NCBI GenBank assembly: GCA_947442475.1 | Contig: CANEVP010000005.1 | Location: 4,308 to 68,307, forward strand | From: Rickettsiales bacterium | GTDB taxonomy: Bacteria; Pseudomonadota; Alphaproteobacteria; Rickettsiales; UBA1997 | DNA length: 64,000 bases | Direction: 5' to 3' | Part shown: positions 4,295-43,021 of the stretch, piece by piece | Numbering within the stretch: position 1 is the first letter of the stretch | How the letters are laid out: the number at the start of each line of letters is the position of its first letter | Made by a program: the position numbers and the translations under genes | Notes under the pieces: model-generated | The model's input: only the letters and a program-made list of their open reading frames with translations | Told to the model about the DNA's origin: nothing | Databases searched by the model: none

Positions 4295-4555
4295 CTAACT
4301 TGCAGCAACTACGTCGATGAAAGTTCTTTTATTGTGAGCTGATTTTACAAAAGTCACGATGCCAGCAATTTTAGCAAAAATCGTGTGATCTTTGCCAATG
4401 CCAACATTTTTTCTTGGATGCCATTGAGTTCCTCTTTGGCGAACAATGATGTTGCCTGCGATTACTGCTTGACCACCGTATTTTTTAACTCCAAGTCTTC
4501 TACCAGCCGAATCACGGCCGTTTCTCGAACTACCACCAGCTTTCTTCGATGCCAT
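4295..4555 (-). CDS. rpmA: 50S ribosomal protein L27
   Basis: 86 aa starting [29 protein letters not shown]...[10 protein letters not shown], the canonical L27 sequence. Confidence 0.95.
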
Positions 4556-31696: not shown

Positions 31697-32476
31697 TTAT
31701 TTCTTCTCTGCCAATTTTTTTTCGATCAATTTCTTAAGTGTCACGTAATCAACATATCCTTCAGAAATTTCGCCATTTACGAAGAAAGTCGGCGCTGATT
31801 TAATTTGCAGAACTTTTGCTACTTCCATTCTTGCGGTAAGGATTTTTTCTTGCAGAGCTTTGTCAGCAAGACAGCTTTTGAATTTTGCTGAACTCATGCC
31901 GTCAAGGCTGGCAATTGCTTCTAATTTATCAGCAAATTTTTCGTCAAAAGCCCAAGCATCTTGGGTTTTAAAAAGAGCTTTTACCGTAGCGTAATATTTG
32001 CTGGTGGCTTCGGCTTTATTTTCATTAGCTTGGCAGTAAGCAAACATCGCACCAACCAAAGCAGATTGATTTAATGGAAAGTTACGGAAAGCGAATTGCA
32101 CTTTGCCAGTGTCGATAAATTCAGTTTTTAATTTTTCGAAAGATTCGCGAGTGAAAGCCGCACAGTGCGGGCAAGAAAGTGAAGCATATTCAACCATCAC
32201 AACCGGCGCAGATCTTTCGCCCAAAACATAATCAGAAGCAGAGATTTTTAAGATCTCGCTATTTTTGCGAGTTTCTTCCAAAGCAGCGGCATCAGCATTA
32301 ACTGCGGCGTTAACGGAATCTTGCTCATGTTGCTTGGGCGCTTCTACTGCAGCAGCTTGATCGTTATATTTTTCAGAAGTTTTGTTCTTATAATTGTGGG
32401 TCACCAGAGCGGCAAGGCCAACAAGAACAAGGACAGAAACAGCAATAGCGGTGCGCTTTTTAGATTGTTTTTGCAT
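31697..32476 (-). CDS. dsbA: DsbA-family thiol:disulfide oxidoreductase (Com1-like), membrane anchored or secreted
   Basis: 259 aa. N-terminal hydrophobic anchor and the thioredoxin-fold active site EYASLSCPHCAAF. Confidence 0.8.
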   Translation of the reverse strand: MQKQSKKRTAIAVSVLVLVGLAALVTHNYKNKTSEKYNDQAAAVEAPKQHEQDSVNAAVNADAAALEETRKNSEILKISASDYVLGERSAPVVMVEYASLSCPHCAAFTRESFEKLKTEFIDTGKVQFAFRNFPLNQSALVGAMFAYCQANENKAEATSKYYATVKALFKTQDAWAFDEKFADKLEAIASLDGMSSAKFKSCLADKALQEKILTARMEVAKVLQIKSAPTFFVNGEISEGYVDYVTLKKLIEKKLAEKK

Positions 32477-38679: not shown

Positions 38680-39695
38680 TTAATATCTGCTAAACATTTC
38701 TTTGATTTCTTCAATATTCGAAGTTTTGGTGAGAGCCATCATTGTCAAAATTCTAGATTTTTGCGGGCTCAAATTATCCGCCGTTACAAAACCTAATTCA
38801 CTGTCATTTAACTCAACATTTGGCACCACTAAACCTGCTCCAACTCTAGTGCTTCTAACAATCACTACGCCTTTTTTTCTAGCTTCAATTAATCTTTCCA
38901 AGCTGGCTTTGTTCAGATTGCCATCACCAACACCTGCGATAACGATTGCTTTTGATCCCGACTCAACCAAGCGATCAATCACGCTAGGCTCTTGTCCTGC
39001 ATGAGCGTAGATGATATCAACCTTTGGCAAATCTTCTGACTTTTTAATATTGAAAATAGTTTCTGCGGTGTGAGTTCTGATTGGCTCATAATAAATTTCT
39101 GGCTTGCCGTAATAGACATATCCGATCGGGCCAGAGTTATTTGCTTTAAATGAGTTAACTTGAATCGTACTGGTTTTTGAAACATCGCGAGCAGCCAAAA
39201 TATCGTCGTTCATCAACACCAATACACTTTTGCCATAAGCAACTTTGCTGCTGGCAAGCGCTACAGCATTATATAAATTGAGAGCTCCATCAGCGCTTAA
39301 AGAAGTTGCTGGACGCATCGCTCCAACCACCACAACTGGCTTTTGGCTTTTAACAACTAGGTTCAGGAAATAGGCCGTTTCTTCTAAGGTGTCGGTACCG
39401 TGAGTGATAACAATTCCATCAACTGAACGCTTGGCTAAAAGCTCATTTACTCTTTTGGCAATTTTAAGCCAAACAGCATTATCGATCTCTTGGCTTGAGA
39501 TTTGAATTAATTGCTCAGCGTCAATATCAGCTAATTTTTCAATACCGGGAACGGTTTTAATGATTTTTGCGATATCAATTTTGATGCGAAATATTTAGAG
39601 CCAACCGAAGAATCTCCAGCGCCAGATATGGTGCCCCCAGTTGCAAGAATAAAAATATTTTTGGCTTTAGCATGAGCGTTGCAAGAAATTGCCAC
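38680..39695 (-). pseudogene. ansB: L-asparaginase (type II family), disrupted by a frameshift and lacking room for a signal peptide
   Basis: Downstream frame (38680-39594): KIDIAKIIKTVPGIEKLADIDAEQL…GIVITHGTDTLEETAYFLNL…KPVVVVGAMRPATSLSADGALNLYNAV… Upstream frame (39531-39695): …KNIFILATGGTISGAGDSSVGSKY, which holds the catalytic TGGT motif. The homology jumps frame at about 39584-39597. The upstream end abuts tRNA-Thr at 39704. Confidence 0.7.
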
Positions 39696-39703
39696 GCAGA
39701 AAA

Positions 39704-39778
39704 TGGTGCTATCGACTGGAATCGAACCGGCGACCTCTTCATTACCAATGAAGTGCTCTACCCCTGAGCTACGATAGC
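39704..39778 (-). tRNA. tRNA-Thr (anticodon GGT), CCA encoded
   Basis: Hand-folded from the reverse complement GCTATCGTAGCTCAGGGGTAGAGCACTTCATTGGTAATGAAGAGGTCGCCGGTTCGATTCCAGTCGATAGCACCA. Acceptor GCTATCG/CGATAGC, D-arm GCTC/GAGC, anticodon stem CTTCA/TGAAG with loop TTGGTAA, and T-loop TTCGATT. One C-A mismatch in the T-stem. Confidence 0.8.
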
Positions 39779-39811
39779 AATTTGGAAACTGCGGAAAAAG
39801 AAGGGGCGCGC

Positions 39812-39839
39812 ATTAAAAGCGCGAGATGATAATTGTCAA
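39812..39839 (-). promoter_or_regulatory. Candidate sigma-70 promoter for tRNA-Thr
   Basis: On the minus strand, TTGACA (39839-39834), a 16-nt spacer, then TTTAAT (39817-39812), about 34 nt upstream of the mature tRNA 5' end. Confidence 0.35.
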
Positions 39840-39901: not shown

Positions 39902-42900
39902 TTACTTAGAATCGCCGCCTTCGTCACCGCCTCCATCGCCTCCACCAGCTTCATCACCGTCAGCACTACTTTTAGATTGATCTCCGCCAGCATCGCCATC
40001 GCCACCACCTTTGCTGCCACCTTTATTTCCAGCCTTACCTATTGCCTCTCGAGTTTTGGCAGCTTTTTCCAATCCTTTGTTACCTAATTTTTTACTGGCA
40101 CCAGCGGCACGTTTTTGTATTGACGCCAAAACACCCTTGACTTTGCTCATCATTTCAAGTGGATCGGCATTTCCACCATCCAACTTTGATCCACCGACTA
40201 ATAGTGCAGCCATTCCTGAAATTTCGTTCATGAATTTATAAAGCAAGAACATCACCATCGCACCCTTCAAAATGGTGAGAACCTTGATCTGCCCATTTTC
40301 GCCAAAAATATTCATTAAAATTGGAATGCTCAAACCAATCATTTCAAGACCCGGCATCGTACCAAAATCATCCAGATTTATTAGACAGGCAACACTATCA
40401 CTCATTGGATCCAATATTTTATCTCCGGTATCATCGCAGTCAGGGAGTTTACCATTAACATATGGATCAATTGAGCCGTCCAAGTTTTTACAAATTTTAG
40501 AGCAAGAAATTGTTTTAGATGGAGCCTGTCCAGAGAAGGTGGCGCTACCAATCATGGTTTTATCCATGATTGTTACAAATAATGCGATATAGGCAAAAAG
40601 TATCATAGGCTGCAAGCAGTATCCTATTAACTCTGTCACCCATTTTTTGAAAATATCAGACGTCTTACTAAACATCGCTGTGGGTATAATCACTGGCGAG
40701 ACGAAGACTAAAATAATAATACCTGCCGCCGAAGCCAAAAAAATATGCAAAGCGCGTAAGGTAGCTGCTAAAAAGAAGAAACCGAAGAACATTACGGCAA
40801 TGGCAAAATAAATTCCTACCCCCGTGGAACTAACTCCCGCAATGTTGAAGCTGAAATATCCAGCAAAAATTAATGACGCAATATTGGCAACACTGACCTC
40901 TGGACCATAGCCCAAATAGCGCATCATTTTACAATCAAGCGTATCCCACAAAGCCAAATATTCTTTGCCAGAAGGATAGGTGCGACCAGAAGAAACTTGC
41001 GAACCATCCGGCAATGAAATCATCCCAAATTGACAGCCATCCCTTTGAGACTCAGATTGCTGAGAGCTAATTTTAAAGACCATCTGCGAAAACTCTGTCG
41101 AGGCGCCGTAAACTCCCTTGAAGAAGAAACCTTGCCACGCATCGCCCGTAGCAAAAAAAAGCACCAAGGTAATTTTGAGCAGATACATTAGGATGTCTTT
41201 TTTCTCTCCGATATTCGCCTTACCCAGCAAGATGTTCATGCCGTAGAACATAATCGATAAAGTCAGAACCATCTTCACCGAATCCTTCATAGTGTTTTGC
41301 ACTATTGAGAAAAATGAAGTCTCTTTCACCGTATTGCCTTTTTGATAAATGAAGTTGCCGTTTACTTTGTAATTACCACTTGGACAAGATCCATCTGGAG
41401 ACGGATATTCATTTGCGTTAGCGCATTTACTGTGACCCGCAACGTTGTAGAAAAGATTTTCTAAAGTTTCTTTCACGCATTGCGCAATTGGCGCCGAAAA
41501 GTGCTTCTGACTATTTAGAATAAAGCTGCCGCCGTAGGCGGTTTGGTTTTGAGAGTCACCGACAAAATTCAAGCAAGCATCTGAGAAATAAGGCGATCCT
41601 AAATTGGTTTCATATTGATAATCTGCTAAACTGGTGACAGTGCAGTGAGTTAAATATTGGCAATAATTTTTACATTTGCCCGCCTTTGCATTGTAGGAAC
41701 AATCACTATTTCTGATTTCACTTTTTGAAGAGCAATTGCCTGCCTTAACGTCATCTTGAGTGATCATGGTCCATCTTCCATTGGAGTATTTTCCATCTTG
41801 GTAATAATCACAATATTCCGAACCCCCACCAACAGCAAAGTTATAAGGGCATAAGCTGTAGGTTTGGGCGCAAATTAAACTACCATTGTCGAGTGATTTG
41901 GTTGAGAAGGTGATGCCTTCCACATTGCATAATTGACCAACTTTACAAAAAGTTTTAACGCCTGTTACCGGATTACTCGCCACATCACCGCCGCCAGAAA
42001 GGCCCGATGCTCCATTTAAGCCACTAGTAACGCCCCCGGTAACCACGCCAACGCTGCTCGAAAGCGCTGTATAATTTAAACAAATAAATTCGGCGCTGCG
42101 TTTTTTACAGCAGGCATAGGCATTTTGTAATTCAACAATTCTTGCGGCAGTGACGGGAGCATTAGTTAAGGGGTCCATATTGCCCGGAACTAAATTATAT
42201 TTCTTACAGTTATAATTACCTGCCGCAGTGCCTCTCATGTAATATTTCTGCTTCGGATATTTGCCATTCACCCTCTGCGTCACGTCGTAACAGCTTTGGT
42301 AACCTCCATCGGGATTATCCTCTACCTCTTCACCGCCGTAATACCATTCGCGATAAGTTTTATCTCCTGAGGCTTCGAGAGTTAATTTTGAGGTTTGTCC
42401 GTCGCGAATATAGCCCTCAACCGCATCTTTTACTTTCTGCTTTTTATTCGGAGCACTGATATCATATGTTAAAGGATTTGCCGTCACCCATTGCGCACCA
42501 CAAACTTCAGTATGATTATAAGTGTTAAGGGCAATTCCGTAAATTATGGCAAGCTGGGCAATCGCGATACCCCAGCTCGCAGTGGCCACAGCAACAGCTG
42601 CACCACATGAATAATTTTGCTGGAGGAGAGCTCTTTTCACTCCCTCAATGGCTCCTCTAGTCAGATCGTAAGCGTCTAGAAGTGGAACTGGAAGTATTCT
42701 AGGAATTATGCTTCCAGTTGAGCATATGCCATTCATCGCGGCAATCGAGGTTTTTACTGCCACATATGTTGTCAATATTACGGTGAAGCATACTGGATTT
42801 GACAAAACAAATTCCGCGTCCTTACCGGCATTTGTCATGTCAAAATTTAAGGTATCTGGAACGCCACTAGAGCTGCAACTGCGGGTTCTACCAACGCCAT

Positions 42901-43021
42901 AATCAGTTGCGCTTTCCGCGTAAGAACCTTGTAGAGAAGTAACAAAAAAACAGCAAAAAACACCGACAGCAAGCAGCAAACGCGAAGCTCTTCTAAAAAA
43001 TGTTTGCTGAAAAATTATCAC
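39902..43021 (-). CDS. virB6: Giant VirB6/TrbL-like type IV secretion inner-membrane protein
   Basis: 1039 aa, immediately downstream of virB4 (21-nt gap). Signal/TM at the N-terminus, a Cys-rich soluble region of about 330 aa, then a block of at least 6 predicted TM helices (residues ~570-900) as in VirB6/TrbL, and a Gly/Asp/Lys-rich acidic tail (…GGGDGDAGGD…GGGDGGGDEGGDSK). Large VirB6 paralogs after virB4 are typical of Rickettsiales rvh systems. Confidence 0.6.
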   Translation of the reverse strand: MIIFQQTFFRRASRLLLAVGVFCCFFVTSLQGSYAESATDYGVGRTRSCSSSGVPDTLNFDMTNAGKDAEFVLSNPVCFTVILTTYVAVKTSIAAMNGICSTGSIIPRILPVPLLDAYDLTRGAIEGVKRALLQQNYSCGAAVAVATASWGIAIAQLAIIYGIALNTYNHTEVCGAQWVTANPLTYDISAPNKKQKVKDAVEGYIRDGQTSKLTLEASGDKTYREWYYGGEEVEDNPDGGYQSCYDVTQRVNGKYPKQKYYMRGTAAGNYNCKKYNLVPGNMDPLTNAPVTAARIVELQNAYACCKKRSAEFICLNYTALSSSVGVVTGGVTSGLNGASGLSGGGDVASNPVTGVKTFCKVGQLCNVEGITFSTKSLDNGSLICAQTYSLCPYNFAVGGGSEYCDYYQDGKYSNGRWTMITQDDVKAGNCSSKSEIRNSDCSYNAKAGKCKNYCQYLTHCTVTSLADYQYETNLGSPYFSDACLNFVGDSQNQTAYGGSFILNSQKHFSAPIAQCVKETLENLFYNVAGHSKCANANEYPSPDGSCPSGNYKVNGNFIYQKGNTVKETSFFSIVQNTMKDSVKMVLTLSIMFYGMNILLGKANIGEKKDILMYLLKITLVLFFATGDAWQGFFFKGVYGASTEFSQMVFKISSQQSESQRDGCQFGMISLPDGSQVSSGRTYPSGKEYLALWDTLDCKMMRYLGYGPEVSVANIASLIFAGYFSFNIAGVSSTGVGIYFAIAVMFFGFFFLAATLRALHIFLASAAGIIILVFVSPVIIPTAMFSKTSDIFKKWVTELIGYCLQPMILFAYIALFVTIMDKTMIGSATFSGQAPSKTISCSKICKNLDGSIDPYVNGKLPDCDDTGDKILDPMSDSVACLINLDDFGTMPGLEMIGLSIPILMNIFGENGQIKVLTILKGAMVMFLLYKFMNEISGMAALLVGGSKLDGGNADPLEMMSKVKGVLASIQKRAAGASKKLGNKGLEKAAKTREAIGKAGNKGGSKGGGDGDAGGDQSKSSADGDEAGGGDGGGDEGGDSK

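Follow-up and report, generated by a model that had tools for sequence, protein, structure and literature searches.

The contig CANEVP010000005.1 of the Rickettsiales bacterium genome assembly GCA_947442475.1 was analysed over a stretch of 64,000 nucleotides (positions 4,308 to 68,307), referred to as the window. On its minus strand, the window carries a gene for a protein of 1039 amino acids (aa), which is a VirB6 subunit of a type IV secretion system (T4SS) of the Rickettsia type (rvh). We consider it likely, with a probability of roughly 0.8, that this protein is a stalk-base subunit of the RvhB6a/b type with a disulfide-braced periplasmic domain. Enlarged VirB6 proteins which occur in multiple copies and have divergent flanks have been known from Rickettsiales since 2009 (PMC2653234). 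"Extended VirB6" is a recognised class, with added domains that have no known function (PMC12857230), and the 1039-aa protein is an ordinary member of it. The source genome (1.68 Mb in 64 contigs), from an uncultured freshwater bacterium, is 94% complete and has a GC content of about 40%. Its relatives are metagenome-assembled genomes (MAGs) from freshwater and groundwater, labelled as Rickettsiales or Alphaproteobacteria.

The Pfam profile PF04610 (TrbL/VirB6) matches the protein with 49.3 bits (E 7e-13), the gathering cut-off being 25.9 bits. The alignment comprises two stretches, with residues ~586-656 corresponding to profile positions 1-71 and residues 728-827 to positions 90-187. An earlier note on this DNA, made from the sequence alone, had described the membrane block as TrbL/VirB6-like; the profile match on which it had made this description depend is present. 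An AlphaFold2 model was computed from an alignment of 121 orthologs, which also underlies the results on cysteines, on the tryptophan, and on the tail reported below. The model has a mean predicted local distance difference test score (pLDDT) of 80 and a predicted template modelling score (pTM) of 0.76. Its only confident PDB matches by Foldseek were stalk chains of R388 TrwI/VirB6 (template modelling score [TM-score] on target 0.47-0.56, E 2e-3 to 4e-2), the best being 8rt9_F (E 2e-3, probability 1.0, TM-score on target 0.55). The T4SS of an IncX4 plasmid served as the canonical yardstick for profile comparison, and hhalign placed residues 580-816 on positions 34-210 of its 364-aa VirB6 (E 6e-5). 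In this alignment, W794 falls on a Trp of the IncX4 protein (IFKKW vs. MFNNW). The residue is invariant in 121/121 orthologs, and the VirB6 Trp which follows the central hydrophobic helix is conserved and has been reported to be essential (PMC2653234). A sequence-profile search of the PDB with the family alignment returned nothing meaningful, TrwI included, and the VirB6 equivalog of NCBIfam matches weakly and below its threshold.

The gene is real and intact. As the earlier note had stated, one gene of 1039 codons occupies positions 39902-43021; its open reading frame (ORF) is uninterrupted on the minus strand, the plus-strand reading being full of stops. A protein search returned 210 homologs, and the 120 homologs listed are collinear, with 44-89% identity, 84-100% length coverage, and sizes of ~900-1100 aa. 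The ratio of nonsynonymous to synonymous substitution rates (dN/dS) relative to the closest ortholog is 0.12 for the whole gene, and every part is under purifying selection (0.06 for the VirB6 core, 0.08 for the Cys-rich part, 0.26 for the N-terminal helices, and 0.33 for the tail). For the partner VirB4, dN/dS is 0.013. VirB6 is far quicker to diverge than this partner, as also seen at the related locus L008, where VirB4 shows 96% and VirB6 61% sequence identity. Canonical VirB6 proteins have only about 300-360 aa and the source genome is a MAG in many contigs, which might point to an assembly or annotation artefact, the gene for a secreted Cys-rich protein having been fused to a virB6 of normal size. 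We consider this practically excluded because more than 120 full-length orthologs of about 950-1100 aa, from independent assemblies and sources, can be aligned collinearly over 90-100% of the length; the fusion of several genes envisaged in the earlier note is thus not what was found. One ORF likewise follows virB4 in 12 related MAG loci, and both the purifying selection in all parts and the single confident multi-domain model speak against such a fusion.

The adjacency to virB4, already indicated in the earlier note, was confirmed: the virB4 stop and the virB6 start are separated by a spacer of 21 nt. This synteny is kept in 12 related MAG loci, and the two genes probably form a two-gene operon. 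The gene virB3 was not found upstream of virB4, where the 222 bp that separate it from the divergent ssb contain just a 33-codon ORF; virB3 (PF05101, E 8e-25) is located on contig C14. The virB3-virB4-virB6 array (islet A arrangement) is therefore not present, a single virB6 following virB4. With respect to the hallmarks of rvh systems as listed by Gillespie and co-workers (PMC11077975), the rvh duplications were encountered, with two matches each in the whole genome for PF03135 (VirB4), PF04335 (VirB8), and PF03524 (VirB9). VirB5 (PF07996) was not found at E up to 1 in this 94% complete genome, the remaining 6% of which could hide it. Genes for VirB3, VirB10, VirD4, and two VirB2 are found either on different contigs or at other places in the window, the second VirB2-like match being on contig C24. 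The arrangement of the locus is a variant, and the gene content is rvh-like.

As a further rvh hallmark, four giant TrbL-positive ORFs (1039, 1623, 1676, and 2453 aa) are encoded in the genome. The earlier note had reported a single giant VirB6, which is correct for the locus but not for the genome; the search for further copies which it had proposed revealed three, on contigs C20, C24, and C26 (Table 1). The four copies are on separate contigs in the source genome and in two sister genomes of the family. Across the order, VirB6 paralogs were detected in 60 of the 61 sampled genomes (1-8 copies, typically 4-5) and are mostly in tandem. The paralog on contig C24 has the N-terminal domain of the 1039-aa protein (36% identity over 788 aa), and the 2453-aa paralog has about 1240 predicted exported residues with 43 Cys ahead of the TrbL block. 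The beginning of the paralogs on contigs C20 and C26 reads "...SSSC", possibly a signal for lipoprotein processing like that of Anaplasma VirB6-3/VirB6-4.

The relation to RvhB6a/b was assigned by best reciprocal similarity. In the Rickettsia-like genome G019, five VirB6 genes (1039, 675, 957, 887, and 1161 aa) stand in tandem after virB4; RvhB6a-e from Rickettsia have 674-1154 aa (Gillespie et al. 2009, PMC2653234). The 1039-aa protein from the window is most similar to B6b (91 bits) and B6a (74 bits) of this set, followed by e (65), d (49), and c (45). In return, B6a and B6b find their best matches in the 1039-aa protein and in the paralog on contig C24. The latter has its own best matches in B6a/b, and those of the paralogs on contigs C20 and C26 are to B6e. 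Because the gene is the first virB6 after virB4 and is most similar to B6a/b, it is considered the positional and sequence counterpart of RvhB6a. Further shared features are the size of about 1040 aa (G019 B6a also has 1039 aa), a signal peptide, an N-terminal extension in which Cys occur, the membrane-proximal module, the C663/C697 loop, and the occurrence as one among several paralogs in a VirB5-less system. In contrast to RvhB6a/b, the paralogs are scattered over four loci rather than being in tandem, there are four copies instead of five, virB4 has no virB3 upstream, the protein is extended at its C-terminus by just about 95 aa, and residues 36-490 lack a detectable counterpart outside the own family.

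The subregions of the protein are listed in Table 1. The signal peptide, with SYA as family consensus, is followed by a soluble region which is predicted to be exported (residues 36-575, about 540 aa, with 24 Cys and 56 aromatic residues) and is referred to as the N-domain. The earlier note had recognised a soluble region that is Cys-rich and aromatic, but had assigned ~330 aa to it and had taken it as an insertion; it is an N-terminal extension after the signal peptide and is not inside VirB6. The glycine-rich stretch GGVTSGLNGASGLSGGGD emphasised there does exist but represents a variable, low-confidence loop, which is lineage-specific and is missing or different in most orthologs. The periplasmic location proposed for the Cys-rich part is very probable. 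Two of the three long helices of the N-terminal helical segment are hydrophobic, and the segment is bracketed by the invariant residues C78, C100, C139, and C174. It is the quickest-evolving folded part of the protein. In the model, the core has helices at 570-598 and 607-648, and then at 688-726, 734-783, 788-824, and 910-942, with two Cys-bearing loops (C663/C697 and C840/C844/C862/C879). R388 VirB6 is a pentamer in which only helices 1-2 cross the inner membrane, the others forming the periplasmic stalk base, with a VirB5 pentamer on top (PMC9259494). The inner-membrane anchor hairpin is presumed, by analogy, to consist of helices 570-598 and 607-648, and the later core helices with the two Cys-bearing loops may be periplasmic stalk elements.

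There are 33 Cys in the protein, 19 of them in residues 240-570, in agreement with the count of about 19 in the earlier note. Thirty are never substituted in the orthologs: 24 in residues 49-546, C663/C697, and C840/C844/C862/C879. The only variable ones are at positions 23 and 24 (signal peptide) and 802 (hydrophobic helix). These three can be regarded as an internal control; set against them, the constancy of the other Cys speaks for disulfide bonding in an oxidising compartment. Paired loss points in the same direction: 98 divergent sequences lack both C404 and C450, with 0 discordant cases, and C844-C862 and C430-C441 likewise co-vary in loss among divergent relatives, so that co-loss statistics support three credible Cys pairs. 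The conservation pattern suggests that the N-domain is exported and disulfide-bonded, and a gene for a DsbA-like protein in the window (Table 1) was counted in favour of this.

The N-domain alone has no Pfam match at E up to 10, and Foldseek detected no PDB fold match for it, neither with the whole-protein model nor with a model of the N-domain only, for which the results were noise (E > 3). A HMMER search against 1.84 billion cluster representatives returned only 196 relatives, the membrane-proximal module being the most broadly matched part. The ten distant matches that were named are all from uncultured Rickettsiales MAGs, with the exception of one partial sequence labelled as Bacteroidota; no cultured genus is among them. 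An order-wide search covered 201 genomes. In the own GTDB family, the N-domain was found in 12 of 12 genomes at two loci each (the virB4-linked ortholog and a paralog), and the ~189 genomes of other families gave two marginal, fragmentary matches (E ~2-3e-4). The BLASTP alignments to RvhB6b (E 6e-22) and RvhB6a (E 1e-16) from G019 begin at residue 493, with C515 aligned. The portions alignable with these Rickettsia-like proteins are about 493-585 and the C663/C697 loop, where both Cys are aligned as well, and the N-extensions of G019 RvhB6a/b are also Cys-rich. We thus conclude that the principle is order-wide, with residues 36 to about 490 being specific to the lineage. The literature searchable here contained neither the 24-Cys N-domain nor its confinement to a single family, nor the dispersed arrangement of the paralogs.

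The C-terminal tail is a low-complexity acidic extension, as the earlier note had described, and the acidic string quoted there is found at residues 1001-1039. After the invariant R971, the orthologs have a median of 75 residues, with 23% Gly, 15% Ser, and 15% Asp/Glu. This composition is conserved and the sequence is not, the tail being the quickest-evolving part of the protein. A Ca2+/metal-binding function had been suggested, the Ca2+ part of which finds no support. The motif GGxGxD is missing from the protein, a full RTX nonapeptide (GGxGxDxUx) occurs in 2 of the 121 orthologs, and PF00353 (RTX) does not match the protein, so that an RTX/Ca2+ motif in the tail was rejected; moreover, the sequence of the tail is not conserved, and the model shows it as disordered. 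The location of the tail is ambiguous. It would be cytoplasmic under a classical five-span topology and the positive-inside rule, and extracytoplasmic if the R388 arrangement or the trypsin-shaving data from Anaplasma (PMC7648143) apply. A role as a flexible interaction arm is plausible.

Taken as an RvhB6a/b-type stalk-base subunit, the protein would function as follows. virB6 would be transcribed together with virB4, the Sec signal peptide cut after SYA, and ~540 residues exported to the periplasm, where they may fold with up to 12 disulfide bonds. The helical hairpin at about 570-648 would anchor VirB6 in the inner membrane. The other VirB6 helices and the two disulfide-bearing loops would build the base of the central stalk above the VirB4 ATPase, by analogy to the pentamer of R388 TrwI, and the three paralogs may be assembled into it as well. 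The N-domain would hang from the first anchor helix at its periplasmic end and, in a machine without VirB5, would most likely be a rigid structure that either surrounds the stalk as a collar or extends along it. The basic helix would, together with the disordered acidic tail, be a flexible, fast-evolving appendage.

Several points weigh against this interpretation. Foldseek matched TrwI with a modest E-value (2e-3), though with a probability of 1.0, and the N-domain modelled alone by AlphaFold2, from a shallow alignment of 14 sequences, is poor (pLDDT 57). The oligomeric state, like the mixing of paralogs, is purely an analogy. Since the N-domain is joined at the membrane-facing end of helix 1, a placement at the top of the stalk needs further assumptions. 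The hydrophobicity of helices 76-100 and 138-169 would suffice for membrane spans, in which case residues 101-137 would be cytoplasmic. A fully periplasmic N-domain is nevertheless favoured by roughly 2:1 because C100 and C139, at the helix ends, are invariant.

As PF07996 was not found in the genome, and as a VirB5 pentamer sits on the VirB6 pentamer in R388 (PMC9259494), the N-domains might instead replace VirB5. On the base formed by their own VirB6 parts, five of them, or a mixture from the four paralogs, would make up the distal stalk or tip, which would nucleate a VirB2 pilus or contact target cells. VirB2 genes are present, and the N-terminal helical part evolves quickly, as an exposed tip might. 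The three-helix segment followed by a globular part also loosely resembles the VirB5 architecture (that of TraC). However, homology of the N-domain to VirB5 was rejected: hhalign of the N-domain profile against the VirB5-position protein of the plasmid gave a probability of 0.06%, and neither model had a VirB5/TraC-like Foldseek match. Moreover, the N-domain is joined to anchor helix 1 at the end near the membrane, and not to the VirB6 bundle at its distal end, so that a collar or side extension is more natural than a distal cap. Residues 36-~490, which make up most of the N-domain, were detected in one GTDB family only, and the loss of VirB5 is order-wide; the N-domain thus cannot be the general solution. 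We consider a purely functional replacement of VirB5 to be unlikely. Even less probable, in our view, is that the N-domain or the tail is surface-exposed or released and is adhesin- or effector-like, a role that others have suggested for the extended C-termini of Anaplasma VirB6-3/VirB6-4. Trypsin shaving indicated that the C-terminal repeats of those proteins are surface-exposed (PMC7648143), disulfide-rich domains are typical of extracytoplasmic, exposed proteins, and the tail and the N-terminal helices evolve much faster than VirB4. The tail, however, has only about 95 aa and is non-repetitive and disordered, and the strongly basic segment which precedes it (+9) favours the cytoplasm under the five-span topology and the positive-inside rule. 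Neither an outer-membrane targeting feature nor a cleavage motif was seen, and there was no match to an adhesin fold.

The stalk-base subunit proposed here can be compared to better-known systems. With R388 TrwI/VirB6 (PDB 7O3V, 8RT9) and with the VirB6 from Agrobacterium or IncX plasmids (about 300-360 aa), it shares the helical core fold and the TrbL match, the aligned Trp after the long hydrophobic helix, and the adjacency of virB4. Unlike these proteins, it is three times larger, with a predicted disulfide-rich N-terminal periplasmic domain of 540 aa, two loops that carry Cys pairs, and a charged tail that is disordered, and it lacks a VirB5 partner. VirB6-3/VirB6-4 from Anaplasmataceae (up to 4,322-9,935 aa; PMC7648143) and F-type TraG likewise consist of a VirB6 core with large hydrophilic additions, and the Anaplasmataceae proteins also belong to multi-paralog sets in Rickettsiales. 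Their additions, however, are C-terminal repeats, some of them in predicted lipoproteins, whereas here the addition is N-terminal, non-repetitive, and Cys-rich, and the tail is short.

Table 1. Subregions of the 1039-aa VirB6, neighbouring features in the window, and VirB6 paralogs on other contigs
Feature	Coordinates	Strand	Remarks
RvhB6-type (extended) VirB6, whole gene	39902..43021	minus	1039 aa, GTG start, TAA stop; PF04610, at least 120 collinear homologs
Sec-type signal peptide, residues 1-35	42917..43021	minus	RR n-region, hydrophobic core 12-35, SYA/E cleavage motif
N-terminal helical segment, residues 36-170	42512..42916	minus	AlphaFold2 helices 76-100, 113-134, 138-169; pLDDT about 87-93
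Cys-rich alpha/beta region, residues 171-500	41522..42511	minus	pLDDT of about 88-95 except in loops
Variable Gly/Ser-rich disordered loop GGVTSGLNGASGLSGGGD, residues 329-346	41984..42037	minus	pLDDT <50 at 327-344
Membrane-proximal module, residues 501-575 (HFSAPIAQC...; C515, C533, C546)	41297..41521	minus	BLASTP to G019 RvhB6a/b
VirB6/TrbL core, residues 576-945	40187..41296	minus	PF04610, Foldseek, hhalign
Basic C-terminal helix region, residues 946-1004	40010..40186	minus	net charge +9; AlphaFold2 helix 954-996
Acidic Gly/Asp-rich disordered tail, residues 1005-1039	39905..40009	minus	net charge -8; pLDDT <50 at 982-1039
virB4 (RvhB4 copy), 795 aa	43043..45430	minus	PF03135 E 1e-54; upstream partner, probable two-gene operon
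Terminator-like GC hairpin	39807..39823	minus	between virB6 stop and tRNA-Thr; consensus scan, regional site count equals chance expectation
tRNA-Thr(GGU)	39704-39778		downstream of virB6
DsbA-like protein gene	31697-32476		8 kb from virB6
VirB2/TrbC pilin gene, 117 aa	8321-8674	minus	PF04956 E 2e-11
VirB6 paralog, 1676 aa	contig C20:8700-13730	minus	TrbL-positive (locus L021)
VirB6 paralog, 1623 aa	contig C24:5266-10137	plus	TrbL-positive (locus L022)
VirB6 paralog, 2453 aa	contig C26:8530-15891	minus	TrbL-positive (locus L023)

A few neighbouring genes were also recorded. Downstream of virB6, the asparaginase gene (38680-39703, minus strand) looks split into an N-terminal piece (39531-39695) and a C-terminal piece (38680-39333) in different frames, and is probably a pseudogene or affected by a sequencing frameshift. 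The VirB2/TrbC pilin gene is isolated, with rpmB (L28) and murB as its neighbours and a distance of 31 kb to virB4-virB6. Directly downstream of the 1676-aa paralog on contig C20 is a gene for a 1265-aa protein with ankyrin repeats and leucine-rich repeats (locus L021 4813-8610, minus strand), which is a candidate for a eukaryote-like T4SS effector. Two genes (~2 kb) upstream of the 2453-aa paralog, at C26:17863-22866 (L023:14412-19415, minus strand), a protein of 1667 aa is encoded that has an M23 peptidase domain at its N-terminus and also a disordered PT repeat.

The N-domain has neither a Pfam family nor a relative of solved structure, and the rest of the gene is an expected part of a known system. 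Why Rickettsiales have several oversized VirB6 proteins, and what makes up the periplasmic stalk of their VirB5-less machine, are open questions (PMC12857230; bioRxiv 10.1101/2025.08.29.673095). The family is a well-behaved test object for these, with a confidently modelled, non-repetitive 24-Cys domain that is predicted to be periplasmic, a deep ortholog set, and environmental hosts that are non-pathogenic. As a speculative extension, to which we attach a low probability, the disulfide-braced N-domains of the RvhB6 paralogs might, in rvh systems that lack VirB5, build the periplasmic collar or stalk extension which is provided elsewhere by VirB5 and by VirB8 arches, with the paralogs giving rise to alternative or mixed stalks. 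If true, this would explain why four to five giant VirB6 copies are kept by Rickettsiales, and would assign periplasmic densities from cryo-electron tomography in Wolbachia that are as yet unexplained.

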